Assembly (NCBI RefSeq): GCF_964204645.1
Contig: NC_134025.1
Coordinates: 7,502,001 to 7,566,000, forward strand
From: Tubulanus polymorphus
Lineage: Eukaryota > Animalia > Nemertea
DNA length: 64,000 nt
Reading direction: 5' to 3'
The notes beneath the pieces were generated by a model. It made no database searches, was not told the origin of the DNA, and worked only from the letters and a program-made list of their open reading frames with translations. Positions 3,405 to 60,903 of the stretch are shown here, in pieces. The position numbers and the translations under genes were made by a program. Position 1 is the first letter of the stretch; each line of letters opens with the position of its first letter.

Positions 3405-3675
3405 GAACGCAAGAATGGAACTGCATGAGTCAGTTCGAATGCAGGAATGGAACTGCAGGAGTCATTTTGAATGCAGGAATGGAACTGCATGAGTCAGTTC
3501 TAATGCAGGAATGGAACTGCATGAGTCAGTTTGAGGATGCAGGAGTGGAACTGCACGATTCATTTTGAATGCAGGAGTGGAACTGTATGAGTCAGTTCGA
3601 ATATAAGAATGGAACTGTATGAGTCAGTTCAAATGCAGGAATGGAACTGCATGAGTCAATTTTAATGCAGGAATG
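3405..3675. repeat. Minisatellite, about 31-bp unit (gaatgcaggaatggaactgcatgagtcagttc), about 8-9 copies
   Basis: Directly visible imperfect tandem copies. Confidence 0.9.
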
Positions 3676-4160
3676 GTGTGGGAGGGTTTGGTAGGAACAC
3701 AGCGGGACGTACAGTAAAACAAAAATTAATTAAAATGATTTTAAATAAGTATGGATGATATGATGGAACAAATTTTAATTTGCCCAATAAAATAAATAAA
3801 GGGATGAAATGAATTGATGGTTTCTTTTTTTATTTTTAGTTTTTATAATTTTTTCAGGAGAACCGTAAAACTCCCTATAAAACCGGTAGCATCTGGTTTT
3901 ATATTTTTTATTTTTTTTTAAATAAAATTGAAATGCAGGACTGCACGCCCACTGGTTCCTAATGCAAGGGGGTTGAAAGATATTTTGTGGCACCGCGCCA
4001 ACTGCAGACCGACGAAGAAATGAAATGAAACGAAATGAATGAGTTCTTAAAACTCACTTGAGCGATAATAATAATGAATGATGAAAGGAGTGCCGATCTG
4101 CAGACGTGCATGGGCTGATGTTGTTGCCCGGAGTGATGGCGAGTGAAGGGGGATGGATCT

Positions 4161-4900: not shown

Positions 4901-6189
4901 CTGAAATGAAAAGAAAAACTATTAAGGATCACGAATATTACACATTAATACCACATAGACTTAACGTCTCCACGTCTCCAAATATGCAATTAATTGCCAG
5001 TTTATCTGATTCATTTCTAAATCAAGAGTTCGAAGGCAATTTCAGTTTTGTCATAGTATGTGTTGATACATCAATAATGGTGATGGTATTAGCTTTTGGA
5101 ATGCATAGGTAAAATTGGTTCATACCAATAACTGGAATTATGGTATAGTTCAGGTTTCACAACTACATAAATTTGTTTTGGAATAACTCATAATTTAACA
5201 CTAAAAGAGAAAGCTGATACAGATGTTAATATTATGATCACCTGCCCCAGCCTTACATGTAGATTGTTGCTGAAAAGCTTTCAAATGTATCTTCTTTATT
5301 CCTCATAATTATCAAATTTGATATTATCGTTAATTCATTTTCATAACATTTATAACACCCATTGCTATCAATACAGTTCGGGTATAACTGCAGATGCCTC
5401 TAGGGGTATAAACAAGTATAAACCAAATATCAAGAAAATCCATTATGCATTTCCTCAATCTGTTCTTAATATCTTTTAAGAAAATGCTCAGTAACAAATA
5501 ATCAAGACAAAATAATTACTTTAATTTGTTCATATTCTATTATCTTAACTATAAGGCGCGTTCACACGACGAAATTTAAACCGGCCTAAATTTTAAGTGT
5601 TCACACGGGCAAAAATACCGTTCCAAATTAGACCGGTCTAGTTTAGACCGGTCTAATTTGGCATGGTGTAAAAAAGCGAACCAGGTCCGGACCAAATTTT
5701 GGACCGGTCTAAATAAGTGTGTGTGGACAGAAACTGGTACCAGGTCCGGTGTCACAGTACAAGTGGTATCCCACTCATTACAGGCACCCCCTGATTGCGC
5801 ATGCGCGTGGGATTCCACTGCTTGTTTACCGCAAACGAGTAAAAGCCATCCCCGTACTAGAGGCATCCCCTTCTTTTGTACCAATTCAATTCAATTTATT
5901 GATGCTTTGATTCATCAAACAATTACCAATTATTTATTGTTTGTTTTTGAATAAAATCACTCGCAATGAAAAAAATACTACGTAACAATGCATTCAGTAA
6001 TGAATGCTTCGGCAGTTGCATTTTATAAGCATCAAAACCGTAAATTTAAAAAGTAATCAGACAATTCCGTTTTTTCAAATACTAAAATATATTTTATTTT
6101 CAATATTTAACGATATTTACATTTCCAGTAAAACATAAGAATAACGCATATAAACATGATAACATAAATGATAGTATCTACTAGTATCT

Positions 6190-9100
6190 ATAAAACATGA
6201 TATTAATGATATTTTGAATAAGATACATTCTGATTAACCATTACTTATGACTTAAAAGGAGGGGATGCATGTAATACCGTACCATCTGACAGTATTAGAG
6301 CTACCCCCTAACAGATTGATATTAAAACAACTATTGCAATTAATAACTTCAAAATCTATAATAAAACATGATATTAATGATATTTTGAATAAGATACATT
6401 CTGATTAACCATTACTTATGACTTAAAAGGAGGGGATGCATGTAATACCGTACCAGCTGACAGTATTTGAGCTACCCCCTAATAGATTGATATTAAAACA
6501 ACTATATTGCAATTAATAACTTCAAAATCTATAATAAAACATGATATTAATGATATTTTGAATAAGATACATTCTGATTAACCATTACTTATGACTTAAA
6601 AGGAGGGGATGCATGTAATACCGTACCATCTGACAGTATTAGAGCTACCCCCTAACAGATTGATATTAAAACAACTATTGCAATTAATAACTTCAAAATC
6701 TATAATAAAACATGATATTAATGATATTTTGAATAAGATACATTCTGATTAACCATTACTTATGACTTAAAAGGAGGGGATGCATGTAATACCGTACCAT
6801 CTGACAGTATTAGAGCTACCCCCTAACAGATTGATATTAAAACAACTATTGCAATTAATAACTTCAAAATCTATAATAAAACATGATATTAATGATATTT
6901 TGAATAAGATACATTCTGATTAACCATTACTTATGACTTAAAAGGAGGGGATGCATGTAATACCGTACCATCTGACAGTATTAGAGCTACCCCCTAACAG
7001 ATTGATATTAAAACAACTATTGCAATTAATAACTTCAAAATTTATAATAAAACATGATATTAATGATATTTTGAATAAGATACATTCTGATTAACCATTA
7101 CTTAAAAGGAGGGGATGCATGTAATACCGTACCATCTGACAGTATTAGAGCTACCCCCTAACAGATTGATATTAAAACAACTATTGCAATTAATAACTTC
7201 AAAATCTATAATAAAACATGATATTAATGATATTTTGAATAAGATACATTCTGATTAACCATTACTTATGACTTAAAAGGAGGGGATGCATGTAATACCG
7301 TACCATCTGACAGTATTAGAGCTACCCCCTAACAGATTGATATTAAAACAACTATTGCAATTAATAACTTCAAAATCTATAATAAAACATGATATTAATG
7401 ATATTTTGAATAAGATACATTCTGATTAACCATTACTTATGACTTAAAAGGAGGGGATGCATGTAATACCGTACCATCTGACAGTATTAGAGCTACCCCC
7501 TAACAGATTGATATTAAAACAACTATTGCAATTAATAACTTCAAAATCTATAATAAAACATGATATTAATGATATTTTGAATAAGATACATTCTGATTAA
7601 CCATTACTTAAAAGGAGGGGATGCATGTAATACCGTACCATCTGACAGTATTAGAGCTACCCCCTAACAGATTGATATTAAAACAACTATTGCAATTAAT
7701 AACTTCAAAATCTATAATAAAACATGATATTACTGATATTTTGAATAAGATACATTCTGATTAACCATTACTTATGACTTAAAAGGAGGGGATGCATGTA
7801 ATACCGTACCATCTGACAGTATTAGAGCTACCCCCTAACAGATTGATATTAAAACAACTATTGCAATTAATAACTTCAAAATCTATAATAAAACATGATA
7901 TTAATGATATTTTGAATAAGATACATTCTGATTAACCATTACTTTAAAGGAGGGGATGCATGTAATACCGTATCAGCTGACCGTATTAGAGCTACCCCCT
8001 AACAGATTGATATTAAAACAACTATTGCAATTAATAACTTCAAAATCTATAATAAAACGTGATATTAATGATATTTTGAATAAGATACATTCTGATTAAC
8101 CATTACTTATGACTTAAAAGGAGGGGATGCATGTAATACCGTACCATCTGACAGTATTATAGCTACCCCCTAATAGATTGATATTAAAACAACCAGGGCA
8201 ATTAATAACTTCATAATCCAAAATAAAACATGATATTAATGATATTTTGAATAAGATACATTGTGATTAACCATTACTTATGACTTAAAAGGAGGGGATG
8301 CATGTAATACCGTACCATCTGACAGTATTAGAGCTACCCCCTAACAGATTGATATTAAAACAACTATTGCAATTAATAACTTCAAAATCTATAATAAAAC
8401 ATGATATTAATGATATTTTGAATAAGATACATTCTGATTAACCATTACTTATGACTTAAAAGGAGGGGATGCATGTAATACCGTACCATCTGACAGTATT
8501 AGAGCTACCCCCTAACAGATTGATATTAAAACAACTATTGCAATTAATAACTTCAAAATCTATAATAAAACATGATATTAATGATATTTTGAATAAGATA
8601 CATTCTGATTAACCATTACTTATGACTTAAAAGGAGGGGATGCATGTAATACCGTACCATCTGACAGTATTAGAGCTACCCCCTAACAGATTGATATTAA
8701 AACAACTATTGCAATTAATTACTTCAAAATCTATAATAAAACATGATATTAATGATATTTTGAATAAGATACATTCTGATTAACCATTACTTAAAAGGAG
8801 GGGATGCATGTAATACCGTACCATCTGACAGTATTAGAGCTACCCCCTAACAGATTGATATTAAAACAACTATTGCAATTAATAACTTCAAAATCTATAA
8901 TAAAACATGATATTACTGATATTTTGAATAAGATACATTCTGATTAACCATTACTTATGACTTAAAAGGAGGGGATGCATGTAATACCGTACCATCTGAC
9001 AGTATTAGAGCTACCCCCTAACAGATTGATATTAAAACAACTATTGCAATTATTAACTTCAAAATCTATAATAAAACATGATATTAATGATATTTTGAAT

Positions 9101-11880
9101 AAGATACATTCTGATTAACCATTACTTATGACTTAAAAGGAGGGGATGCATGTAATACCGTACCATCTGACAGTATTAGAGCTACCCCCTAACAGATTGA
9201 TATTAAAACAACTATTGCAATTAATAACTTCAAAATCTATAATAAAACATGATATTAATGATATTTTGAATAAGATACATTCTGATTAACCATTACTTAT
9301 GACTTAAAAGGAGGGGATGCATGTAATACCGTACCAGCTGACAGTATTATAGCTACCCCCTAACAGATTGATATTAAAACAACTATTGCAATTAATAACT
9401 TCAAAATCTATAATAAAACATGATATTAATGATATTTTGAATAAGATACATTCTGATTAACCATTACTTATGACTTAAAAGGAGGGGATGCATGTAATAC
9501 CGTACCATCTGACAGTATTAGAGCTACCCCCTAACAGATTGATATTAAAACAACTATTGCAATTAATAACTTCAAAATCTATAATAAAACATGATATTAA
9601 TGATATTTTGAATAAGATACATTCTGATTAACCATTACTTATGACTTAAAAGGAGGGGATGCATGTAATACCGTACCATCTGACAGTATTAGAGCTACCC
9701 CCTAACAGATTGATATCAAAACAACTATTGCAATTAATAACTTCAAAATCTATAATAAAACATGATATTAATGATATTTTGAATAAGATACATTCTGATT
9801 AACCATTACTTTAAAGGAGGGGATGCATGTAATACCGTATCAGCTGACCGTATTAGAGCTACCCCCTAACAGATTGATATTAAAACAACTATTGCAATTA
9901 ATAACTTCAAAATCTATAATAAAACATGATATTAATGATATTTTGAATAAGATACATTCTGATTAACCATTACTTATGACTTAAAAGGAGGGGATGCATG
10001 TAATACCGTACCATCTGACAGTATTATAGCTACCCCCTAATAGATTGATATTAAAACAACCAGGGCAATTAATAACTTCAAAATCTATAATAAAACATGA
10101 TATTAATGATATTTTGAATAAGATACATTCTGATTAACCATTACTTATGACTTAAAAGGAGGGGATGCATGTAATACCGTACCATCTGACAGTATTAGAG
10201 CTACCCCCTAACAGATTGATATTAAAACAACTATTGCAATTAATAACTTCAAAATCTATAATAAAACATGATATTAATGATATTTTGAATAAGATACATT
10301 CTGATTAACCATTACTTATGACTTAAAAGGAGGGGATGCATGTAATACCGTACCATCTGACAGTATTAGAGCTACCCCCTAACAGATTGATATTAAAACA
10401 ACTATTGCAATTAATAACTTCAAAATCTATAATAAAACATGATATTAATGATATTTTGAATAAGATACATTCTGATTAACCATTACTTATGACTTAAAAG
10501 GAGGGGATGCATGTAATACCGTACCATCTGACAGTATTAGAGCTACCCCCTAACAGATTGATATTAAAACAACTATTGCAATTAATAACTTCAAAATCTA
10601 TAATAAAACATGATATTAATGATATTTTGAATAAGATACATTCTGATTAACCATTACTTTAAAGGAGGGGATGCATGTAATACCGTATCAGCTGACCGTA
10701 TTAGAGCTACCCCCTAACAGATTGATATTAAAACAACTATTGCAATTAATAACTTCAAAATCTATAATAAAACATGATATTAATGATATTTTGAATAAGA
10801 TACATTCTGATTAACCATTACTTATGACTTAAAAGGAGGGGATGCATGTAATACCGTACCATCTGACAGTATTATAGCTACCCCCTAATAGATTGATATT
10901 GAAACAACCAGGGCAATTAATAACTTCATAATCCAAAATAAAACATGATATTAATGATATTTTGAATAAGATACATTGTGATTAACCATTACTTATGACT
11001 TAAAAGGAGGGGATGCATGTAATACCGTACCATCTGACAGTATTAGAGCTACCCCCTAACAGATTGATATTAAAACAACTATTGCAATTAATAACTTCAA
11101 AATCTATAATAAAACATGATATTAATGATATTTTGAATAAGATACATTCTGATTAACCATTACTTATGACTTAAAAGGAGGGGATGCATGTAATACCGTA
11201 CCATCTGACAGTATTAGAGCTACCCCCTAACAGATTGATATTAAAACAACTATTGCAATTAATTACTTCAAAATCTATAATAAAACATGATATTAATGAT
11301 ATTTTGAATAAGATACATTCTGATTAACCATTACTTAAAAGGAGGGGATGCATGTAATACCGTACCATCTGACAGTATTAGAGCTACCCCCTAACAGATT
11401 GATATTAAAACAACTATTGCAATTAATAACTTCAAAATCTATAATAAAACATGATATTAATGATATTTTGAATAAGATACATTCTGATTAACCATTTCTT
11501 TAAAGGAGGGGATGCATGTAATACCGTACCATCTGACAGTATTAGAGCTACCCCCTAACAGATTGATATTAAAACAACTATTGCAATTAATAACTTCAAA
11601 ATCTATAATAAAACATGATATTACTGATATTTTGAATAAGATACATTCTGATTAACCATTACTTATGACTTAAAAGGAGGGGATGCATGTAATACCGTAC
11701 CATCTGACAGTATTAGAGCTACCCCCTAATAGATTGATATTAAAACAACCAGGGCAATTAATAACTTCAAAATCCAAAATAAAACATGATATTTTGAATA
11801 AAATACATTCTGATTAACCATTACTCATGACTTTAAAGGGATGTTATACTGTACCAGCTGACAGTTTTAGAGGTATCGCA
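6190..11880 (+). repeat. Tandem satellite array, 171-bp monomer (164-173 bp variants), about 33 copies
   Basis: cttaaaaggaggggatgcatg recurs at 6251, 6422, 6595, 6766 and onward. Copies are near-identical, with a recurring 7-bp deletion variant. Confidence 0.97.
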
Positions 11881-12072
11881 TTATAGAATGACAGATAAAA
11901 TGATATCAAAACATAAAGGACATTTTTTACTGTCAAACTACCTGACCTGACGATAGTATAGCTCAAAATGATATCACAACTAATTATTAGAATTCATAAC
12001 TGCAAAATAAAAAAATCAACTATGATAATCTTTGGATTCTTACGAAGATACATTTTGTAAAATGACGAAGCA

Positions 12073-15000
12073 TTAGTACGTTGGTTTTAAGCCCTTTTGC
12101 AAAATTTCAATACATTCTTCATCAGATATAACAACATCTGATGGCATAAAGATATTTCCATCAAATTCAGGGTATTTTCTCAAAATACAAGTGGCGTTAG
12201 GGTGGAAATAACCAACTCTCCAGGAATCCCTCTTGCTGGCAGATTTTTTATCAAAGAATTGATAATTTCCATATGAAGCCACAACCAGTCTCGATTTAAG
12301 ATCCGTAGGGCAGCCTTGGCATCGCTTTATTCTCGTCGATCTTTCCTTCATGTAAAATGGCGCTGAAAAATAATACATTATTGATATGTTAAAGCGCTAA
12401 AATGAGACGTGTTACAGCTTTCATGTCGTTATTTTCAAATTACCTATATCTTTTTCTTGTTTACTAGTTCTTTCCTTTTTCGGTAACTCCATCTTTCCGC
12501 CTAGAAAAGTCAATGTAATTGTCAAAAATAACCGATACAGATGTAATAACTAAATTCAAATCTGTGAAAAGTATACCTGTTTCTTTTTTCTTCTTTTTTA
12601 CAGCTTTTCGCATTTTCGTACCTACAAATTGTACACATATATGTATATACAAGACCATACCTCTCCTACTTAATTCGTTATATACGAACATAATTATGTT
12701 CGTGGTCACAAATGCGCTACATCAAATTAGTAATCTGATTGAATAGAATTAAGAAATGCAGAATTAACAGACCTGCAGTTTTGTTGTCACATGCAGTGGT
12801 ATTCTCGAACTCAAAATCACTCGTTTTTCTTCGTTTTGGTGGAACTATGTCTGGTAATTCATTATCTGTAATATAGAAAAACAGGGTACTTTAGGACGAC
12901 TCTATTTCATAGTACTAACTTTCTACTACAGTAGGCCTATCATAATGATTCCTTGGCGAATGTTTGTCTCCATCTGTAATCCATCTTGCAATAAATTATG
13001 GACATTCCCGGTATCCTGACATATTGAACTTACTAGTAACGAACTCTGCATCATGAAGCTCATTTTCATTTTGGACGAGGGACACATCAGGAAAGTTACC
13101 TGAAGAAAAGTTTCTATTCAATTTATCTTCATTCTCCGTTGGTCTTTTACTCTTACTTTAAAATTAGGATTGTGCGCGCGACATGTGTAGTGAGTAGATA
13201 CCTCGGAGCTAGAACCAACTTAATTATTTCTCCTTAGTCTTAACTAAGTACACTGTGAAAAAATTATCATTGATTTTCTTTCGTAAGATTTTTCATCAAA
13301 TTATCCTAAGACTTTAATAACTCCTATAATAATATAATGTTATAAATGGAATCATTCTGGGTAAACCAGGTCGACCAAATGAATCATGCCAGCCAACCGA
13401 TTGGAGTCTTCCCAGTCTTCCTCAAAGTTTGATACATTGTTATGCAACAGCAATTCATTATAACTCACCATTTCCTATAGGATTTCCTTGATTTTCTTGT
13501 TCGCCTGAATAAAAATGAATGCAAATATATTCATTAAAGAATTAATATAATAGATAGAAAAGATATTCGCGAGACTGATCTTTGCTTACTGTCAATAGCT
13601 TTGCAGTACTTGCAAAAAAACATCACACTGCTTGCAATGTTGCTGCCTATCAGGGGTATTTGTCTGTTGTAGCAAGCTAGGTGAAACCACCTAAAGCATC
13701 TATCACAGCCAATCTGATTGAAAATGATAAATCAAATAAACTGGGAACATTTCTAAACATTCACCACGAATAGAAGAAAAATTGTATAATATCAATTAGT
13801 GTCAACGGAAACTTACCCAATCGGTAACATGAATTGAGCTTGCATGACAACATAGACAGCACATCTTTGAAGGATCTGTAGCTATTGAATGAAAATACAC
13901 TGTAATTTCAATTTCAGGTAAAGGAATGTGTATATCTTTATTGCGTACTGTTCACCTTTCTTACCTATCGATCCCATGAGCCACATGGCTATCTCAAATC
14001 GGTACTGATCGATCGCAGAACTAGTATTGTCAAACTCAAGGGTTTCATTTGCCAAAATACTCTCTGCAAACTACAGAATATCGCAGAATATAATCAATTA
14101 TAGTGTGAGGCCTATTTGATTAACAAACACGGTCTCCTGCAAGTTATTTAGATACAGGGTATACCATAATTAAACTTGTTAATATCAATAATATCCCTGT
14201 ATATAAAGTCCTTTCATATACCTTGAGAACAAAGACTCCACATGATGATGAATCTAGCTGCTTTGAGTGTTTGACGGTCCTCAACCTCCAGTTTCCCATT
14301 GACTTGACACTCTTGATGGCGATTGTGTTTTTAAAAACGGTTATCAATTCCTCTTTTAGTTCGCCCAATGAATTGAGATACAAGATCTCTTTCGTATTTG
14401 TCTGTATGATCTGCAGATATAATGAATTTTAAAGCAATTATAAGTTCTATGTTCAGTTCTATGTGATTTGATTAAGTACCATGAGTGTCCAGTGACCACC
14501 ATGTAACAATGGGCATAGCCATACTTCTTTTTCTGCCAATGATCTCTGAAATATAAGAATATCTTTTTAAAAACTGTCACATGAAATGACATTAGATAAA
14601 TCCTTGGATAATACTTCTAACGTTACTTCCTAAGAATTCCAGCTTATTCTATTTCATGGTTACACAAACTTACCAATGCACCCGGCAATCGGCGTCTATC
14701 ACCAAATATCATTGGCGACAAAATATGGCTACTCTGTACTCCAATCGTCTAAAACCATAATGTTTATTTCAATGAATTCAAGAAATTTTCAATAAGCAGT
14801 ACCGCGGTAATTTGTTTAATTGGTACATACGAATGTACACTTCAAACTTTCCATACTTACTTTCGATTCCGTCGAATACTTTAACGTTAAATGATTGAGC
14901 CCTTGAAAAACAGCCTGAAAAAGGAATACGTTTAATCAACCCAGAAAAAATCAAAAAATTGTAAGAGCTTTATACTTACTTCATCATTGAGCTGTTCATT

Positions 15001-18000
15001 TTTTTTTAATGAAAATATTGTCGCATCCGACAACGGTACTCCTCTTACGGTAAACAATTTTCCAAAGTAGTAGTCCTTCGGACCATATTCCCAGGTCGTA
15101 TAAACCACTGAAAGACAGAAATCATACATTCATGATAATTATCATCGCCATTGACTGTGGGCACAATGTGAGAAACTGTTTTCTTACGAGTATCATCTGA
15201 AGGTACTGCTGCTTCTTTTGCGATCGGTACAGACATTTCTATCTCTTCCGTATCACTTATATTTATTATTTCTGTAAATAGACAGGGAATTTATTAAAAG
15301 ATGGGAAAAATGTTTAGAATTTTGTCTATTATACCAACGATATTCTATGTACACACCAGCGTTGTTGTCCACGATGTCGTCACCAGCCTGGACTTCAGTG
15401 TCATCAATTAAACCATCTAGAACAGAATTAATTGACGATGACATTCAACATAATTATTATTTACAAACTTCCCAAATTAATTCATTCATTCTTAAACTTC
15501 TGTTTTATTCTGTACACACCAGCGTTGTTGTCCACGATGTCGTCACCAGCCTGGACTTCAGTGTCATCAATTAAACCATCTAGAACAGAATTAATTGACG
15601 ATGACATTCAACATAATCATTATTTACAAACTTTAGAATTAATTAATTCATTCTTAAACTTTTGTTTTATTCTGTACACACCAGCGTTGTTGTCCACGAT
15701 ATCGGCACCAGCCTGGACTTCAGTGTCATCAATTAAACCATCTAGAACAGAATTAATTGACGATGACATTCAACATAATCATTATTTACAAACTTTAGAA
15801 TTAATTAATTCATTCTTAAACTTTTGTTTTATTCTGTACACACCAGCGTTGTTGTCCACGATGTCGTCACCAGCCTGGACTTCAGTGTCATCAATTAAAC
15901 CATCTAGAACAGAATATAATTGACGATGACATTCAACATAATCATTATTTACAAACTTTAGAATTAATTAATTCATTCTTAAACTTTTGTTTTATTCTGT
16001 ACACACCAGCGTTGTTGTCCACGATGTCGTCACCAGCCTGGACTTCAGTGTCATCAATTAAACCATCTAGAACAGAATTAATTGACGATGACATTCAACA
16101 TAATCATTATTTACAAACTTTAGAATTAATTAATTCATTCTTAAACTTTTGTTTTATTCTGTACACACCAGCGTTGTTGTCCACGATATCGGCACCAGCC
16201 TGGACTTCAGTGTCATCAATTAAACCATCTAGAACAGAATTAATTGACGATGACATTCAACATAATCATTATTTACAAACTTTAGAATTAATTAATTCAT
16301 TCTTAAACTTTTGTTTTATTCTGTACACACCAGCGTTGTTGTCCACGATATCGGCACCAGCCTGGACTTCAGTGTCATCAATTAAACCATCTAGAACAGA
16401 ATTAATTGACGATGACATTCTACATAATCATTATTTACAAACTTTAGAATTAATTAATTCATTCTTAAACTTTTGTTTTATTCTGTACACACCAGCGTTG
16501 TTGTCCACGATGTCGTCACCAGCCTGGACTTCAGTGTCATCAATTAAACCATCTAGAACAGAATTAATTGACGATGACATTCAACATAATCATTATTTAC
16601 AAACTTTAGAATTAATTAATTCATTCTTAAACTTTTGTTTTATTCTGTACACACCAGCGTTGTTGTCCACGATATCGGCACCAGCCTGGACTTCAGTGTC
16701 ATCAATTAAACCATCTAGAACAGAATTAATTGACGATGACATTCAACATAATCATTATTTACAAACTTTAGAATTAATTAATTCATTCTTAAACTTTTGT
16801 TTTATTCTGTACACACCAGCGTTGTTGTCCACGATGTCGTCACCAGCCTGGACTTCAGTGTCATCAATTAAACCATCTAGAACAGAATATAATTGACGAA
16901 GACATTCAACATAATTATTATTTACAAACTTCCAAAATTGATTCATTATGAACTATTGGTTTATTCTGTACATACCAGAGATGTTACTGTCGACTTCCGT
17001 GTCAGCATTTGCCTTCAAACCTTCTAAAACAAAAGATTTTAATTACTTTTCATTATCAGTACATGTCTTCACGAGTATGATGTCTTTAATTCATTAAGAT
17101 ACTCAACTCTTCTTTAGAAGGTTTCTTGGAATATACTCAGTGATTAAATCTCTGGTGGGCATCAAGTGTTTCAAAGACACTTTTCTGCCCAGAGGTCTAC
17201 CATCTTTCAATAATATCGCTGATTTGCCAACAATCTCTTCAATAGTCAACGTCTCCTCGTGGAAGTTAGATTCCAAGAAACCACCTTTCCTCCCAATATT
17301 TTCTGCTTTGTACCTAATATATATACCATATATTCAATGCAACACGTAATAATACATACATAAAACTATAGGCATGGTATGGAACTAATACCTGTAGACC
17401 TTGTCTCCAACTTTGAGGCTCTTCGCTCCTTTATTTTGCCGCCTATCGTAATTAATTTTTTGACGAGTTTGGGCCTTTTCAATATTTTGCCTCGCGGTCT
17501 GTTCAATTTTCTCATGAATGGATAAAATATTGGCTTCAGTATTTCCGTTTTCTTCAACTCCCTGGATATATAAGGTAAATATAGGAAAATGAGACATATT
17601 TTAACAAAATTCAGCATCTTTATACAAAAATTCGAACTGAAAAAATTGATTTTACCGAGTATTCTTCAGTAACCTCTGGTACCTCAATTCCATTCCTGGC
17701 AACTCTTCCATACATAACATAAAACGGAGACATTTTCGTGCTGCTGTGTGGCTTCGTATTAATGGAGTAAGTGGCACTGTTTAAGTAATCGTCCCAATCA
17801 TTTTTTTTAGAATTAACTAAATGCTTTAATCTCCTAAAATACAATAATGTAAGAATGACATAATACATGAAAATAGATCTGTCTGATGTTATATTTCCGT
17901 ATTTTCACGTACTGTTTTAGAGTTTGATTTGTCCGTTCATCGAGTCCATTGGTTTGTGGGTGGTAGGCAGCGGTGACACAATGTTTCGTACCCATCATTT

Positions 18001-21000
18001 TCAATAACTCATCATTCAACTAAAATGAATCAGGATCATTTCACTTATAGTTGTATAGTACTAGTTATACTTATATTGTTATATTGTTATATGATTAAAG
18101 CTGTATAGTTAATTATATAATCATAGTTATATTTATAGTTATAACTATAGTTGTAGTTAAAGATGCTTACTTGAATTTTAGCTAATTTATTAATAATGAA
18201 TAAAATATGAACATTTTCACAAAAATACATAAAACATAAGGTGATCGAAGCTTTAAGATCCCGTAAGAGAATGACAAAACCAATTGTGGGTTAACAAAAA
18301 CCAAAGCTGAGAAATACAACACCAACGTTACTATGATTAAAACACAACCTTAATGTTAAAAAGTTTGACAGTACCTACATACCTTCCTCTGAATTCTGCA
18401 CTTAAAAGAAGACAATATGACATGATTTTCAATGATAACAAGTTCTCTGTGATTTATCAAGAGTCAAACCTACTTGATTATTAAATTCCCTTCCTTGATC
18501 AGACAGGATTCTCTTTGGGGCACCAAATCGATAGTACATCTGTAGGATACACTTTGCAACTTCAGTTGCCGACTTTTGTTTTATCGGGTATGCTTCTACC
18601 CATTTTGACACGTAATCAGTAGCCGTAAATATATACCGGTTTCCATTTTTTGTCATCGGTGCTTCGGTTAGATCAACGCCTACCATTTCCCAGACTTCAT
18701 TAACCTAGAAATAAAAAACAATTAACAATATGGTCTATCGTAATAATAACCTCATAATTAACTTAACTAAATTTCGAAATACAAATCATAAGCTCACAAT
18801 AAAAACGTAGATGGGATAATACTGAGCGCGGCGAAAGCACATGTCATATGTATATAAGGATTGGGGACGAATTTCACTACCTTTTCAACTGTACATATTC
18901 AAATGATAGTAGGGAATTATATCTAGACAGCAGATTTTATATCAACCTTATGAAACATAAGTTATTAATGCAAACCAAAGAGAAAGCCGAACTTAGTAAA
19001 TTGTGAATTTTTATTGGTAAAATTATGAGATTTTTCACTTTTCCTTAGAAATAGCTCGCATGTAAACCTATATTTAATTAGGTATCTACCTACTGTACGT
19101 CGCATATGATGTATCTTTTTATGTACTGTATATATCACTCAAATTGCCTTTGTATTAAGACCAAGAGTTTGTCAAATAAAGTAAAGTAAAGTAAAGTATG
19201 TGAAATAATCTTATACTTGATGTTGGTGAGGGTACATGTAAATTTTATAGAAGAAAAGAGACATTTACCTTAATAGGTTGCAACTCAGAATCGCCCTTCA
19301 GCAATCTCCCAGTTTTGATATTACAGCTTTCACATCCCTTGATCTATTGATTTATTGATGATAAGAAATAAAAAGGCACCTTTAATTGGGTAATAATACA
19401 TGCTCTAATTATTCTATGTTATGTTTAATAATTGTACTGTTACGTAGAATATTCAAACAAATAATATACGGATCAGTTGATCACAATATCCGTGATAAGA
19501 CGATGAGTAAAAATCCCACAATATATGACTGAATCTAAAAGGGTTATTTGATATATGAACTTACCCAGTCTCGCAAGTCATTAGTCATTGAAGGCCAAAA
19601 GTACTTCTCTGCGATCACGGAGAAAGTCTTTTCTAATTTGAAATGGCCTCCTTCAGGACTCGAATGATATGATGTAAAAATCCTTTTTACTTCATCCAAG
19701 GAGCTTACAACTTGGGCATGCTTGCCATTCCGACGAATTCTAAATAGTTGAGTTCCTGCCAAAAACGTAAATTGAAGCAAGATTTATTTTTCAAAACTTT
19801 TATTGATTTTATTTTACCAGAATGAGTTCAAATAGAATAACAAGTTCAATCATTTATATAATATATATCTATCATCAGATTTATGATTATTCGATATTAG
19901 CTGCTTTACTAACTATTGATCGGGACTTGAGATATTTTTCTTAGATATTGAGATTTGATCTTTAATCTATCGATGCAATATCATTATTCATAATTTTGGT
20001 TATGTTCGGTGAAATGGTGGCGCGTAATCTCAAACTCAAGCGGATACAGATCAGTCGTAAGGAAAGATATTCAAACAATTTAAACGCCGGCCCGAACGGC
20101 AAACAACCCTTTTAACCTCTGTGAAAATTGGAAATATAGCTTTTAGAGATACTTCAAAGTTAATAGATATCGCGCGGTTAAAATATGCGGTCCTTGGTTT
20201 CACATCGTCACTGTTCTCTGTTGCGTTCAAAACATCCAAGAATCACCAGCAGATATCTGCATTTCATTTCCTTTAAAATGGTGTTTGAGTTCATCGAGCA
20301 AGGGACTGTAGAACTATATGATATTTAATCTAAACATATGTTTTAAAAAAAGAGTTGAAATTATCGCAAAAATGTGGACCTCGAGGGACCGCCATAAAAT
20401 GGCGCCTATTTATCAAATTTATCAACTTTTAGCATCAAATGCTAAATTTCATGAATCACCCTTAAAGTCGGATAGAATATAGTTCATCAGAATGTATTCA
20501 CTCTAAAATAATCGTTTTAAATCTAAGATTTGGAAGTAATTCTTTTAAATGTTCTAATAGATAGCTCAACTGCTAAATAGAACGGTATAACATGCACATC
20601 CTGTTAAGTTAAATATAATAGTCAATGAGAATACATCTACATAAAAACGTGAATAAGATGATGTCTTATTTTGGAATTATCCAAAAGTGATTTATCTTTG
20701 AATTTTTAATTTGGTTTAGTATCTTTCTATTACGGAACAGCTCTATTAATGCTTTCTCTGGTGCGATGTTAATCAGAATATATCTTCTAAGATACCAAAA
20801 ACCTGTTTGATTTATCAAGTAATACCCTTCTAATTACTGGTACATGGAAACCGCTGTTAAACAACTGTTGTGTTGCGTCGCCTCGTATCAACGTACGTGA
20901 ACATATCATGCCTATCCTAATTGATGGGTACTGCCACGTTCGGGGCCATTAATTTTTACTGCTGACAAAAAGATTCTGACTGAGACACCTGTTCAAGCAC

Positions 21001-24000
21001 GTTGCTATGCATACTAGTCGTATGATTCTATCTACGGTGATTAGAGGCCACAAAATCATAAATTAAAAGTTTTTCACTATCGCAGTTCAGTATAATAGTA
21101 GTCTACTTTAATTTAAATAATAATTGTCCTCCAGTATCTTAATATCATTTTATCAGGGGATAGCTCTAACACTGTCAGCTGGTACGGTATAACATGGATC
21201 CCCTCCTTTAAAGTCATAAGTAATGGTTAATCAGAATGTATCTTATTAAAAATATCATTAATATCATGTTTTATTTTAGATTTTGAAGTTATTAATTGCC
21301 CTGGTTGTTTTAATATCAATCTATTAGGGGGTAGCTCTAATACTGTCAGCTGGTACGGTATAACATGCATCCCCCTTTAAAGTAATAAGTGATGGTTAAT
21401 CACAATGTATCTTATTCAAAATATCAGTAATATCATGTTTTATTTTGGATTATGAAGTTATTAATTGCCCTGGTTGTTTTAATATCAATCTGTTAGGGGG
21501 TAGCTCTAATACTGTCAGATGGTACGGTATAACATGCATCCCCCTTTTAAGTCATAAGTAATGGTTAATCAGAATGTATCTTATTCAAAATATCATTAAT
21601 ATCATGTTTTATTATAGATTTTGAAGTTATTAATTGCCCTGGTTGTTTTAATATCAATCTATTAGGGGGTAGCTCTAATACTGTCAGCTAGTACGGTATA
21701 ACATGCATCCCCCTTTAAAGTAATACGTAATGGTTAATCACAATGTATCTTATTCAAAATATCATTAATATCATGTTTTATTTTGGATTATGAAGTTATT
21801 AATTGCCCTGGTTGTTTTAATATCAATCTATTAGGGGGTAGCTATAATACTGTCAGATGGTACGGTATTACATGCATCCCCTCCTTTTAAGTCATAAGTA
21901 ATGGTTAATCAGAATGTATCTTATTCAAAATATCATTAATATCATGTTTTATTATAGATTTTGAAGTTATTAATTGCAATAGTTGTTTTAATATCAATCT
22001 GTTAGGGGGTAGCTCTAATACGGTCAGCTGATACGGTATTACATGCATCCCCTCCTTTAAAGTAATGGTTAATCAGAATGTATCTTATTCAAAATATCAT
22101 TAATATCATGTTTTATTATAGATTTTGAAGTTATTAATTGCAATAGTTGTTTTAATATCAATCTGTTAGGGGGTAGCTCTAATACTGTCAGATGGTACGG
22201 TATTACATGCATCCCCTCCTTTTAAGTCATAAGTAATGGTTAATCAGAATGTATCTTATTCAAAATATCATTAATATCATGTTTTATTATAGATTTTGAA
22301 GTTATTAATTGCAATAGTTGTTTTAATATCAATCTGTTAGGGGGTAGCTCTAATACTGTCAGATGGTACGGTATTACATGCATCCCCTCCTTTTAAGTCA
22401 TAAGTAATGGTTAATCAGAATGTATCTTATTCAAAATATCTATAATATCATGTTTTATTATAGATTTTGAAGTTATTAATTGCAATAGTTGTTTTAATAT
22501 CAATCTATTAGGGGGTAGCTCTAATACTGCCAGCTGGTACGGTATTACATGCATCCCCTCCTTTTAAGTCATAAGTAATGGTTAATCAGAATGTATCTTA
22601 TTCAAAATATCATTAATATCATGTTTTATTATAGATTTTGAAGTTATTAATTGCAATAGTTGTTTTAATATCAATCTGTTAGGGGGTAGCTCTAATACTG
22701 TCAGATGGTACGGTATTACATGCATCCCCTCCTTTTAAGTCATAAGTAATGGTTAATCAGAATGTATCTTATTCAAAATATCTATAATATCATGTTTTAT
22801 TATAGATTTTGAAGTTATTAATTGCCCTGGTTGTTTTAATATCAATCTATTAGGGGGTAGCTCTAATACTGTCAGCTAGTACGGTATAACATGCATCCCC
22901 CTTTAAAGTAATACGTAATGGTTAATCACAATGTATCTTATTCAAAATATCATAAATATCATGTTTTATTTTGGATTATGAAGTTATTAATTGCCCTGGT
23001 TGTTTTAATATCAATCTATTAGGGGGTAGCTCTAATACTGTCAGCTGGTACGGTATAACATGCATCCCCTCCTTTTAAGTCATAAGTAACGGTTAATCAG
23101 AATGTATTTTATTTAAAATATCATTAATATCATGTTTTATTTTGGATTTTGAAGTTATTAATTGCCCTGGATGTCTTAAATATCAATCTATTAGCTCTTA
23201 TAATGTCATCGATGTTTTAAAATCATTTTATTTGGAGATAGCTCTAATACTACATCTAGTATAAAATGCACCCCTTACGGTCAAATATGATAGCTGTATC
23301 TAATAATTAAATATTGAATAATATGAAGTTTTCAATTTTCATCTATGTTTTGATATCAAACTATGAGGGAATAGCTCTAATACTGCCATATCTGGTGCCA
23401 TGCTAGATATTACCATTAATCAGAATCTGATTGATGTCGTGTATCATTTTCTTATTTTTAAGTAATTAATTGTCATGATGTTTTGATATCATTCTATTAG
23501 AATAGTACGTCAAATATGCCGCCTCTAAGATTGGCCTTAGTTAAATTAGCCTCAAATACCTGAAAAAAAGCTGTTTGATTTATCAGGGAATACCCCTCAT
23601 AATTGCTGGTGCGTAATTGGCATCCATAGAAACCGCAGTTAAACAACTGTTGTGATGCGTCGCCTCGTTTCAACGCACGTCAACGCATCATAAATTGCTA
23701 CAGTCTTCCTTGGGTACTGCCACTTCCAGGGCCGTAGTACCATTAATTTTTACTCCTGACAAGAAGATACTGATAGAAACACCTGTTCAAGCACGTTGCT
23801 ATGCACAATGAAAATCTAAAGATTTTTACGATCTCCAAAGTTCAGGACCTACGTTTTCATCGAGTTGTGAAAAACGTTGAAACTATTTTTTTTCTAACCA
23901 ATATCCTTTACAAAATACACACAAATTTTCAAATGATTGGTTGAAACATTTTGTTCATTTCTTTTCATCTAAATGACTTATTGAAAACTTTTTTAAAAGA

Positions 24001-24567
24001 AATAACTCATTCAGCTTTATTTGGTCGATCCAGAGTCATGACAAATCTTTTTCCCAACAATTTTAGCTTTGATAATAGCAATAAAACCAAAACGCTTCAG
24101 AATTAAAATGATTGGTCGAACAAATTTTCTCACATTACTTAGTAAATTTTTCTTTAAAGAAATAGTCTTGTTGGATAGATCCTGAATGCCGAAAAATAAT
24201 TTTTATTTGGGCCCAAACAGTTTTCCCAACAATTTTAGTTCGGTAACAAAAATCGCACATTCGGTCACAAACGCTTCAGATTTTCAAATGATTTGTTGGA
24301 ATTTTTCACTCACATATCTATCTAAATTTAATTTAAGTCAAGATATCTTTTTCCTAACTGTATTTATCTATCTCAAAAATAATTTTAAAACACTTTAATG
24401 AATTTTCAAATATTATTTTGAAAAACGAAAATATTTCATTTCCTACCTTGCATGGTAAAATGCTTCGCTTTCTTTCTCAGAGTACACTTCATCGCCTTTG
24501 TAAAATCGGCTGGATATTGGCCATTCAACAGGTAATTAGAAAGGTTCGTTGCTTCAGCAGGATCCAT
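12073..24567 (-). CDS. Ginger1 transposase, multi-exon: HHCC Zn finger + DDE integrase + acidic repeat + Ulp1/C48 protease + PHD + C-terminal Zn finger
   Basis: Exon 1 24567-24447 MDPAEATNLSNYLLNGQYPADFTKAMKCTLRKKAKHF. 19755-19565 and 19343-19269 give YHSSPEGGH...YFWPSM...CESC. 18704-18474 has VGVDL...ILSDQGREF. 18019-17913 has YHPQTNGLDERTN. Further exons at 17833-17656, 17561-17392 and 17313-17108, then ten 60-nt exons. Ulp1 motifs LNDE / GGHWTLM / YLNSL / QLDSSSCGVFVL at about 15108-14222. PHD CLCC..IGCDRCFRWFHLAC..CKYC at 13876-13591. Last exon 12362-12073. GT-AG phases stay compatible throughout. Confidence 0.9.
15345..16975 (-). repeat. Ten tandem 162-163-bp exon+intron units, each with a 60-nt phase-1/1 exon encoding DGLIDDTEVQAG(D/A)DIVDNNA
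   Basis: Unit landmarks at 15351, 15514, 15676, 15838, 16001, 16163, 16325, 16487, 16649 and 16811. The minus strand reads ttctag|ATGGTTTAATT...AACGCTG|gtgtgt. Confidence 0.88.
21150..23200 (-). repeat. Second array of the same 171-bp satellite in reverse orientation, about 12 copies, inside transposase intron 1
   Basis: The reverse complement of the left-array monomer (catgcatcccctccttttaagtcataagtaatgg) is repeated. Degenerate copies extend to about 20560 and about 23500. Confidence 0.96.
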
Positions 24568-27409
24568 TTTTATTGATGATAGTTAAATAAATCGATAAGT
24601 ATATTATCGGAAACAAAAAGCACGGCGCGATTGATTACGGTAAATGCTAGCTATGCTGTCAGAGGATGCCGTTTATACGGCGAAAAGCTGTCTGCTATTG
24701 ACGCATGCGCAGTGCATATTGACGCATGCGCAGTCTGCTATGGGATGCCTGTTGTACGGGGATGCTAGTTGTACTGTGACACCGGTCTAAATCGTGATTC
24801 TGTATCTCAGCGGTAGATGTCGCGACCTCTGCGGTAGAGTGTGAGTCCAGTTTATAAAGTTTTAAATGCTTTTATTACCGTTTATGTACTTATTTTTAAG
24901 TACTGTTTTTCCTCCCTATTCTATAGAAATGTTTGGAGCTTATTCGTATTCGTATATCACGATCATCATCCGTTTTACTGCCGTGCTTTGAACCGTGTTT
25001 AAATGATACTTAGCGTTTCAGCGTGATAGAATAAGTCGAATTCGCAAAAATGTCTAAACCTGACAAAGGATCAAATTGGTCAAATGAAGAATGTCTTGCT
25101 CTACTTCGAATCTGGAAGCAAGACTTCATCCAGTCGCAATTAATTATAGCAGATGGCGACATCTTGTGGGCCCGGTGACAAGCGATTTTATCACCGCGTG
25201 TCAAAACACCGTGTGAATGCTCACCAAAATTTCGTTGGTCTAACTAGTTGTCGTGTGAACGCGACTATAGACAGTACATGGTAAATCATATTCAATTTTC
25301 ACATATTTCAAAGTTTTTTTACATTTTTTTCATGGTAGAAAAACAATGCAAACAATTTGATTCAAATTTCGTACATATTTTTATATATATTTTGTATTAT
25401 GAAAATTGTATTATATTTTTGATAAATTTTCAATTTATATGAACTACATCATAAATAATGGAGCTTGCCTGCCCGGGCAAACCTCCGTTTCCGGAGGTGA
25501 AAAATTGAAACCGAATGACAAATAGTCAGAACTACAGTCCGGAAACGATTGACCGCGGAATTGAGCACGGTTGCTGTAGTTCGCACCTAGTTTCAAGATA
25601 GCCGACACTGAAATATGTAACGACCGAACTATAGTGCCTTTGGTTATAAGCTCCGACCTTTAATCGACTAACAATAAAAACCAGGTTCGACCTGGTTAGA
25701 CAGATTGCCACTCAATTCACTGTTGATTTATTCACATTCAAAACAACCAAGATCTGATACCATGAGCCCTGGATTGATGAAGGATCAGCGACTGGGTCAC
25801 TTCACCTCAATGAAGGCCTATTTCACATAAATTCACAACTTATTCAAATGAGCCACTTACCCCTTGAATATCGAATCCTTCAGACACAGCTTATTTAAGA
25901 ATTCACAGGTTTTTGAGTTGTGGCGATAAACGCAAAAATTTCACACAGACGCAGCACAGGTAAAACTTTATCTCCCAAGACTACATCAAGAGGATATGGT
26001 ACTAGTGGTTCTGATGAAGTTCTGGAGTTGTATTTAACAATGTTCAGCTCATATTTGACATAATCTAAGACAATATTCTGACAAAACGCTACATTTGAAT
26101 ACATTTTAATGTTTGAATACATCTTAGTTTATGTGTATTCCTCTGAAACGGATTTACACCATTTACAAAAAGCGATTTGTCTTGAAATCAAACACCAAAA
26201 TTCATTTTCACTTAAACCCGATTTTAGCTATTCACATAAAATGCTTATCATATGAAAAAAGTACAAAATAAGTTTAGGCCTCATTGAGACCTCACCAAAT
26301 CTTCAAATACTGGGCAGTCATTAGTTTCAACTTTGCAATTGAGAGCAATAAAAAATATACCGACACCAACGCGAATCGAAAAATTGCTTATATTTTCATA
26401 ATTTTCAGTTCTCCTTATGGGAGTATCGATACTGAAAAATACTAATTCAACTTGATAAGATGCTGTTCAATTCAAGTAAAATAATATCACAGCATGATAA
26501 TTCATTTACCATTTTGATTTACATGTATAAGAATTGTACAATGGTGATACAAATAAACAATTCAAGATGGAGGGACGCATCAAGAAACCTGTTAAGGTTT
26601 ATGAAAGTAGTTGATGATATTTACATCAATACAAGCAGCCTATCTGCTTCTCCGCTGTTTAATGATAAGACTTTACAAGGACCACCTACACAGCACTCTC
26701 AAGAGTTCAAATCTAGAAAACGGCTCTATTACTTTCTAGCCCTTGGCCCATAGTATCTACATACCAAGTTTCGTCAACATCGGACAATAATTGTAGGACT
26801 AGTAGCGATTTAAAGATTTTACAAGCGCCACCCGTACAGTGCCCCCTAGAGATCAAATTGGGAAAATGGGTCTATAACAAGATCAGAAAAGAACTGTAGC
26901 ACTAGTAGCAAATTGAAGCAAAAGTTGACGGATGGACGACGATGGATAATCCCCCTAACCCATCAAAACCCACAAAAACTCATTGGAAAGCGGGTTTCAT
27001 TGAATATCCCGCGGCATTTTTGCGGCATAAATACCCACAAGAAAGCCATTTTGTTTCTGATCAAAAAATGTTTTTGGGATGATGAAATAAAGGGTATCAT
27101 AAATGTATAACAAAAATTCAAGACGAGAATAAATATGCAAAATGTACTTATTTTGACCGAGAAACAACAAAGGCTGCCAGTCAGTTATCTTAATTCTGAT
27201 AAGGGCCAATACTTAAGATTCGTTTATTGAATATTGAATTTCAACCAAAAAAATTATTAAGACAATTCTGATTTCTCAATGTATCATTTTATTTAAAATT
27301 TTTTTTTAATTTTATCATTTTATTGAAGTATTCACAAACCGAATTCAGAAACCGAACAATCAACAATCAGCAGTTTGTAGAATAACCAGACAGCTACAGT
27401 TAACAATAA

Positions 27410-27990
27410 TAAGTACTGGGCGTAGATGCGCTGGTATCACTGGTACTGGCTTGATGCACTGGTATGACTGGTACTGGGATGATGCATTGGTATGACTGGT
27501 ACTGGGATGATGTACTGGTATCACTGGTACTGGGATGATGTACTGGTATCACTGGTACTGGGATGATGTACTGGTATCACTGGTACTGGGATGATGTACT
27601 GGTATCACTGGTACTGGGATGATGCACTGGTATCACTGGTACTGGGATGTTACACTGGTATCATTGGTGATGGCTTGATACACTGGTATCACTGGTACTG
27701 GGATGACGTACTGGTATCACTGGTACTGAGATGATGCACTGGTATCATTGGTGATGGCTTGATACGCTGGTATCACTGGTACTGGGATGATGCGCTGGTA
27801 TCACTGGTACTTGGATGATGCGCTGGTATCACTGGTACTGGGATGATGTACTGGTATCACTGGTACTGGGATGATGTACTGGTATCACTGGTACTGGGAT
27901 GATGCACTGGTATCATTGGTGATGGCTTGATACGCTGGTATCACTGTTACTGGGATGATGCGCTGGTATCACTGGTACTGGGATGATTAT
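27410..27990. repeat. Minisatellite, 28-bp unit (atcactggtactgggatgatgtactggt), about 20 copies
   Basis: Directly visible. The unit is not a multiple of 3, so it is likely non-coding. Confidence 0.92.

Positions 27991-29774: not shown

Positions 29775-30223
<449 letters not shown>

Positions 30224-52091: not shown

Positions 52092-60903
<8,812 letters not shown>

Follow-up and report, generated by a model that had tools for sequence, protein, structure and literature searches.

We analyzed a 64,000-nucleotide stretch of the genome of the nemertean Tubulanus polymorphus (contig NC_134025.1, positions 7,502,001 to 7,566,000 of the forward strand; hereafter, the window), which contains a 19,032-bp DNA transposon at positions 5750-24781. 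Inside this element, a predicted transposase gene occurs together with two tandem arrays of the same 171-bp monomer in opposite orientation, and the core of the monomer resembles the two ends of the element joined to each other. A sequence-only reading of the locus had described a giant Ginger1 transposon carrying its own inverted satellite arrays. The features of the element and its insertion site are as follows.

The element, its target and its gene

5554..5749, + strand: host repeat, left part; target hit by the insertion (reads)
5746..5749, no strand: left target-site duplication (TSD), CCGG (sequence; empty site in reads)
5750..5791, + strand: left terminus, on the 3' side of the gene; 7-bp tip and two copies of a 17-bp terminal motif (5757 and 5775)
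5837..5870, + strand: two more subterminal motif copies, strong at 5854 and weak at 5837
6188..11924, + strand: array A; about 33 monomers of 171 bp, beyond the stop codon, antisense to the gene
11944..12054, + strand: decayed monomer in the interval from array A to the stop codon (nhmmer, E 6e-4)
12073..24567, - strand: predicted transposase gene; 34 exons, 33 introns, 1134 amino acids, modelled from the sequence
15348..16985, - strand: array C; ten exon-plus-intron units (Tandem Repeats Finder (TRF), 162 bp x 10.1)
20522..21011, - strand: second 240-bp intron-1 unit (21011-20797) and decayed monomers (20769-20522)
21120..23208, - strand: array B; about 12 monomers in intron 1, sense to the gene, inverted to array A
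23204..23805, - strand: first 240-bp intron-1 unit (23805-23565) and decayed monomers (23501-23204)
24741..24781, - strand: right terminus, on the 5' side of the gene; 7-bp tip and two copies of the 17-bp motif, with a weaker third at 24678
24782..24785, no strand: right TSD, CCGG (sequence; reads)
24786..25266, + strand: host repeat, right part; read depth about 350-650

Both ends of the element have the form TGT...ACA and start with TGTCACAGTACAA, the right end as the reverse complement with 13/13 positions identical. Similarity of the terminal inverted repeats (TIRs) covers 20 of the first 24 positions and, with gaps, reaches about 55 bp. CCGG lies directly outside each end. The empty site was found in X5, a set of raw reads (12% of the run, mapped on 23030-27300) from another sample and study than the window, in which 355 reads join the left flank (29 of 30 letters identical to window 5716-5745) straight to 24782. 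Because these reads carry a single CCGG, the duplication is real. Ends, CCGG and empty site agree on the TIR- and TSD-bounded 19-kb element that had been proposed.

The insertion hit a repeat that is rich in CCGG, present in many copies and about 680 bp long, and that has 17-bp TIRs and ATA on either side; read depth is about 350-650 in this repeat versus about 5-26 within the element (array monomers excluded). The repeat has a short Myb-like reading frame at 25050, for which Pfam gave no match, and from this frame and the 3-bp TSD we presume it to be Harbinger-like. It is a natural landing pad for CCGG-specific Ginger elements.

TRF assigned a period of 171 bp to both arrays, with 33.4 copies in array A (6190-11839) and 12.1 copies in array B (21139-23194), and a self-BLAST aligned the two in inverted orientation at 94.7% identity over 2,064 bp. 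The inverted pair, 33 monomers after the stop codon and 12 in intron 1, is thus agreed upon by TRF, self-BLAST and the gene model. Deletion variants of 164 bp are scattered among the 171-bp monomers of array A. The two 240-bp units of intron 1 are GC-richer and 75% identical to each other, both run into decayed monomers, and the unit is identical in samples S1 and S2. Searches for structured RNA with Rfam and ARAGORN gave 0 matches each for the monomer and the 240-bp unit. With exon 1 beyond array B, the bracketing of the transposase body noted earlier does not extend to the whole gene. Arrays A and B are 438 bp and 1,573 bp from the tips, respectively, and since they are set back by unrelated DNA (which includes exon 1), they are not true long TIRs. 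Together with array C, they make up 9,464 of the 19,032 bp, leaving an element of about 9.6 kb.

The transposase gene was modelled on the minus strand: exons were chosen manually on the basis of open frames and splice signals, and a script joined them. All 33 introns of the resulting model are GT-AG, and the predicted 1134-residue protein has no internal stop; the stop codon is at 12075-12073 and intron 1 spans 24446-19756. Pfam was run on single gene pieces, 5 of 16 of which matched at E<1e-3. The exon at 19755-19565 encodes an H2C2 domain (Integrase_H2C2, PF17921, E 1.2e-11), followed by an integrase core (rve, PF00665, E 5.1e-13) with DDE residues D140, D198 and E234 in exons 18704-18474 and 18019-17913, an Ulp1/C48 protease at about 15107-13965 (Peptidase_C48, PF02902, 21.4 bits at a cut-off of 20.7) and a PHD finger at 13881-13590 (PF00628, 27 bits at a cut-off of 24). 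The transposase is predicted to be intact, with an unbroken integrase-Ulp1-PHD protein; the low-complexity exons (8-9 boundary and 29-33) are the least certain part of the model.

Ten of the 33 predicted introns come from the tandem exon-intron duplication of array C, whose unit consists of a 60-nt phase-1 exon and a 102-nt intron. The units are 97% alike and encode an acidic 20-amino acid linker repeat, which adds 200 acidic residues to the predicted transposase linker. The array C exons occur as two variants in alternation. Array C had no place in the earlier description of the locus.

The integrase part is 38-44% identical to "Gypsy integrase-like" proteins that lack a reverse transcriptase (RT), and the nearest named relatives among the 10 checked are such proteins of fish, amphibians and lancelets. 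A protein-homolog search with exon 4 at E<=1e-10 gave no match; a full HMMER search did. Intron-containing integrase genes at eight loci (L001, L002, L003, L005, L006, L007, L011 and L018) are split at approximately the same positions as exons 4-6, and many short database proteins begin and end at the exon-4 boundaries. In view of these shared split positions, the intron positions seem common to a wide clade.

Ginger1 elements (Bao, Kapitonov and Jurka 2010, PMC2836005; this and the other papers below are cited from partial texts) are 2.6-7.1 kb long and have 0-4 introns and proteins of about 500-800 amino acids. Their TSD is a 4-bp CCGG or CCGT/ACGG, here CCGG, and their TGTNR ends correspond to TGTCA at both ends of our element. 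The TIR is short (13 bp perfect, 20/24, gapped likeness to about 55 bp) against about 40-270 bp in Ginger1. The H2C2 zinc finger and DDE integrase core are present, as are the extra protease (Ulp1 or OTU in Ginger1, Ulp1 here) and the optional PHD. The YPYY motif before the zinc finger has a possible counterpart, seen by eye, in Y..YP..F..F of exon 1, and exon 1 aligns to the N-termini of homologs. A C-terminal GPY/F module is indicated by homology, in that residues of about 350-410 align to the GPY/F regions of proteins P0076 and P0121; the literal G-P-Y/F triad is absent, and H-E-E-T-L faces the triad of both proteins. Since the triad is not kept, we filed the element as Ginger1-like and not as canonical Ginger1; with this adjustment, the Ginger1-type identity proposed earlier fits the TSD, ends, H2C2/DDE, Ulp1 and PHD.

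A tblastn search of the 64-kb window with an RT probe gave no match, hence no RT of a Gypsy retrotransposon. In a tree of 41 integrases (20 with RT; no Repbase Ginger1 reference), the element belongs to a group of 13 rows (98/98), all of them lacking RT. Among known families, it is most like the Ulp1+PHD type of Ginger1, e.g., Ginger1-9_HM, in its CCGG TSD, TGTNR ends, H2C2 and DDE, C-terminal Ulp1/PHD, introns and lack of RT. It is unlike Ginger1 in its length (19 kb versus 2.6-7.1 kb), predicted introns (33 versus 0-4), protein size (1134 versus about 500-800 amino acids), replaced G-P-Y/F triad, short imperfect TIR and internal inverted arrays, which the available part of PMC2836005 does not mention for Ginger1. 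Two other assignments were rejected. Ginger2/Tdd elements have an AT-rich target and no YPYY or GPY/F, in conflict with the CCGG target and the aligned GPY/F region. GingerRoot (PMC6839031) is likewise an integrase-related DNA transposon, of up to 12.9 kb, but has a 6-bp TSD and lacks HHCC, YPYY and GPY motifs, whereas our element has a 4-bp TSD and H2C2.

The monomer and the joined ends

Every monomer has two copies of a 17-bp motif, inverted to each other and 14 bp apart. Both ends of the element carry this motif at positions 8-24, with further copies directly inward. When the last 24 bp of the element were joined to its first 24 bp with no spacer, the junction gave an ungapped match to the monomer at 33/48 positions. 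Junctions with spacers of 1-7 bp gave 20-27 matches and a junction with CCGG inserted gave 21/52. By comparison, 3000 dinucleotide shuffles had a mean of 21.1 and a maximum of 27, and the best of 261 tiles of DNA outside the element had 25. Taken by itself, the 14-bp spacer agrees with the two tips at 9/14 positions (P=0.002), and each arm of the monomer is nearer to its own end of the element (17 versus 14 and 16 versus 14). With regard to arm length, arms of 16 and 20 bp beat all 400 shuffles and arms of 7 and 12 bp do not; the signal is strongest at 20-24 bp, with no gain past 24.

A motif matrix built from the 4 terminal copies only found, at scores of at least 14, 83 sites in the arrays, 5 other sites in the element (4 of which are the training sites) and none in the 45 kb outside; at scores of at least 10, the numbers were 90 in the arrays and 15 outside. 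The arrays hold approximately 90 copies of the terminal motif. The earlier suggestion that they act in end pairing or self-regulation stays a suggestion, and it gains a basis in sequence from a monomer made of the terminal motif of the element.

Two simple origins of the monomer were considered and rejected. A double insertion that kept the TSD would leave a CCGG junction, and this junction matches at the background level (21/52). A plain deletion derivative is unsupported, as the interior of the monomer has no match to subterminal DNA. The tips within the monomer are altered: one keeps CA, and the other has lost TG...CA. Integrases generally need a terminal CA, and with such a tip the monomer junction would be a poor substrate.

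The same arrangement as at the ends of the element was seen at one end outside the window. On a contig of another host, locus L002 has CCGG, a TGTCAC tip and a motif ending GGTATCCCC with at least 6 repeats, some of them inverted. This CCGG-flanked, Ginger-like end, at 1236-1070 of the minus strand, has a 32-bp subterminal repeat and carries the motif in both direct and inverted orientation. Arrays of 30 and 36 bp near the integrase of L002 are, by eye, unlike the terminal motif. Among 80 metagenome loci (53 with RT), the 13 examined for ends yielded no complete TIR/TSD-bounded Ginger, and the fused-end junction pattern occurred in 0 of the 80.

History and copy depth of the arrays

The 44 full monomers (33 in A and 11 in B) include 15 that are identical across arrays (12 in A and 3 in B). 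Rare variants are common to both arrays and occur in the same order (B07=A22=A27, B08=A12), and the longest exact inverted match between arrays, of 622 bp (A 10279-10900 = B 22440-21819), includes such variants. Mean monomer identity is 95% in A, 93% in B and 93% between A and B. At the array edges (11944-12054, 23501-23204 and 20769-20522), decayed monomers are only about 77% identical, and intron 1 holds an older duplication of the 240-bp unit with its monomers (75% identity). This contrast between decayed edges and identical centres suggests that the arrays have been in place for long and that, inverted as they are, they have exchanged sequence recently. The arrays are old and probably exchange sequence, inside one copy or between copies.

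Junctions of the arrays with the body of the element were checked in contigs and reads. An X1 contig over 11764-12183 (depth 151, no differences) joins array A to the last exon, the body having a depth of 144-152; a second contig over 23141-24371 (depth 81) joins array B to intron 1; and the inner junction of array B is present in sample S2. In total, 3 of 4 junctions were recovered, the left end of array A (at about 6190) lying outside coverage, and the assembled joints are supported to this extent.

The main monomer contig of X1 has a depth of 2520, corresponding to about 17 monomers per element body; divided by the 30 such monomers in the window, it gives 83, next to a depth of 81 for intron 1. 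X1 contigs branch at depths of 118, 73-80 and 40, which suggests a few near-identical copies and a subfamily of about 90% identity. Members of this second subfamily have 76-, 116- and 143-bp deletions near the 3' exons and were observed in X1, X2 and X5 (11980-13155).

With ratios of about 5-17 monomers per body across data sets, there is no abundant free satellite, and the 45 units of the window copy are above average. An abundant independent satellite was the very case that would have spoken against the arrays as part of the element; read depth instead places them within it. Spread of a nucleosome-length satellite around the genome and seeding of chromatin, also suggested earlier, are not supported so far, given that monomer depth is low and roughly in line with the few element copies. 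"Giant" is apt for the window copy (19 kb versus 2.6-7 kb known) but is partly copy-specific: half of the length consists of three length-variable arrays, and another individual has on average about 5-6 monomers per body.

Interpretation and relation to known systems

Repeats that echo transposon ends are already known from Galileo and Tetris. In Galileo, a foldback-like element of the P superfamily, tandem repeats of the TIRs bind the element's own THAP domain in electrophoretic mobility shift assays (PMC3688188) and vary in number (PMC3573991). Like Galileo, the element in the window is coding and has length-variable tandem repeats near both ends that echo the terminal recognition sequence. 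In Galileo, the repeats number 2-3, are part of continuous long TIRs and have been shown to bind, whereas here 12 and 33 repeats are internal, one array is intronic, the paired motifs of each unit are inverted and have the spacing of fused ends, and binding is putative. TIR-220 of Tetris from Drosophila virilis (PMC4079207) has 37 bp in common with the terminal domain and seeded satellite arrays. As in Tetris, inverted arms of satellite-sized tandem repeats share a short stretch with the terminal domain; Tetris, in contrast, is non-coding and has seeded free arrays, while our element is predicted to be autonomous and has no abundant free array. In Bari1 arrays, the units follow each other head to tail, lack a TSD and have trimmed tips (PMC8834629, PMC5932611). 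The monomers resemble these and other tandem transposon dimers, for which a circle concatemer or a trimmed dimer has been proposed, in being end-to-end units with damaged tips and no TSD, but Bari1 units are whole elements in heterochromatin, and here a 171-bp unit, with 24 bp of each end matched, is nested in the parent element.

With regard to the traits of foldback elements (FB, Galileo, Tetris), inverted tandem repeats occur in both arms and the repeats contain terminal sequence, and there are no continuous long TIR arms that start from the tips. The foldback-like architecture noted earlier is borne out in this sense, with the arrays internal; the element appears to work like a foldback, yet it is not a foldback in the strict sense. 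The best reading of the sequence is that a Ginger1-like element converged on the Galileo/Tetris design. [quoted passage not shown] Neither this satellitome, a giant-transposon review (PMC6431247), the Imagin paper (PMC12863088) nor a Ginger2 MITE paper (PMC3845634) has a comparable element in the part seen. No Ginger with internal inverted arrays was found in the literature searched, whose scope did not extend to Repbase Reports, subscription journals and supplements.

On balance, we lean towards the view that the element is a low-copy, Ginger1-like cut-and-paste transposon whose arrays, apparently built of its own joined ends, serve as extra transposase-binding sites in the manner of Galileo. 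In this model, the transposase would recognize each end by the 17-bp motif at positions 8-24, excise the whole 19 kb and re-insert it at CCGG. The monomer may go back to a very small derivative of a Ginger, or to ends joined to each other, and may have multiplied head to tail, through a circle-derived concatemer or a dimer that had lost its CCGG, before becoming resident at both places. With altered tips, it would be bound by the transposase and cut poorly, such that the arrays could load or soak up the enzyme and help or damp the pairing of ends 19 kb apart; being inverted, they could pair with each other, exchange sequence and slip in length. A bolder version, which we regard as tentative and less than probable, treats the arrays as a captured concatemer of fused ends that might be used as a tunable transposase scaffold or sponge, with about 90 sites, disabled tips, paired arrays kept identical, dosage set by repeat number and possibly an additional fold-back RNA. 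Such self-built dosage control has no description for an integrase-type DNA transposon in the papers found.

Several observations weigh against the binding-site model. The 24-bp arm length was chosen after the match had been seen, and the 123-bp interior of the monomer has no significant match to either subterminal region. The motif does not clearly stand out in its conservation: in full monomers, variable columns are 3/34 in the motifs versus 43/123, columns that are not independent, and in decayed monomers, identity is 0.80 for the motif versus 0.77. The L002 end has no link to the transposase gene in its locus. Contig depths are rough and do not represent copy number, the assembly may have been made from X1, and three contig ends join monomers to DNA that is absent from the window. 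X5 has as few as about 5-6 monomers per body, 23316-23458 is nearly devoid of its reads, and many of the reads that it has on the body stem from the subfamily of about 90% identity, which has only a putative link to arrays. The low ratio in X5 implies that long arrays are not required by all copies.

The alternatives are not fully exclusive of this model or of each other. The arrays may be derived from the element and have no function, a junction fragment growing and shrinking by slippage and unequal exchange and carried passively. We think this rather unlikely, even though monomer numbers differ widely (about 5-6 versus 17 versus 45 per body), the unrelated array C reveals a general tendency to tandem expansion and there is no clear excess conservation of the motif; both motifs and their exact 14-bp spacing have been kept in nearly all units (90 sites at scores of at least 10) despite edge decay, and the arrays lie near both ends in mirror orientation. 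A role at the RNA level is more doubtful still. A transcript that reads through array A could pair with array B over about 2 kb of double-stranded RNA and silence or edit its own message, and sense poly(A) signals in array B could truncate that message. There is indeed no AATAAA or ATTAAA on the sense strand from the stop codon to 6098, i.e., in all of array A, while array B has one AATAAA per monomer and the arrays are on average 93% identical. The scenario is a pure prediction, however: transcription could stop sooner at a non-canonical signal, splicing could remove intron 1 before transcription of array A, and the copying of the element's ends by the monomer is left unaccounted for.

We consider it very improbable that the 171-bp unit was inserted twice as a satellite of the host in its own right or as the core part of a Helentron- or MITE-type carrier. 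Helentron-borne monomers of 160-180 bp are common in oysters (PMC8268682), two 240-bp units in intron 1 are each followed by monomers, and the three monomer junctions with DNA absent from the window fit such a history. It conflicts with a monomer depth only about 5-17 times that of the body, with the lack of any monomer in the 45 kb outside the element, with the match between the monomer and this element's own ends, and with array A, which has no copy of the 240-bp unit and no carrier ends in common beyond decayed monomer sequence. We give equally little credence to the idea that the junctions are real and the array lengths or identical A/B blocks are assembly errors. The lengths are those of the assembly, and at 12245, 13094, 13128 and 14447 in the body, the majority X1 contig and the window disagree; still, 3 of 4 array junctions were seen in contigs or reads, variant monomers recur in ordered, non-identical patterns, and the X1 monomer depth fits the assembled count. 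The array observation itself is real, and the arrays are element-derived.

Elsewhere in the window, host gene fragments were observed at 32473-54451, including an Aida N-terminus (32473), a RING finger (39211) and BRCT repeats (44950 and 47668), and a fragment of a molybdopterin-binding domain lies at 54140. Tandem repeats outside the element (2576-2873, 3405-3676, 27425-27987, 29956-30223, 52574-52792 and 53308-53725) include minisatellites with units of 29, 32 and 28 bp, a perfect tract of (CTG)89 and long (TA)n tracts, one of which is inside a 360-bp palindrome (52498-52859). Another high-copy repeat, at 26460-27030, has a read depth of up to about 600 and internal tandem joints of 126-147 bp.

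What is distinctive in this element is the combination of a fused-end monomer, an intronic array, 33 predicted introns, far above the 0-4 reported for Ginger1, and an apparently intact enzyme. Foldback-like design is known in the P, Mutator and other superfamilies, to which the element in Tubulanus adds the Ginger group, which among DNA transposons is nearest to Gypsy and retroviral integrases. Positions 8-24 of its ends offer a candidate recognition motif for Ginger transposases, and because the copy is predicted to be intact, it is testable. The arrays would also represent a satellite-sized repeat at its birthplace, whose origin in fused transposon ends is still legible, and a natural experiment on whether additional binding sites compensate for the cost of a long element or instead throttle the element that carries them.

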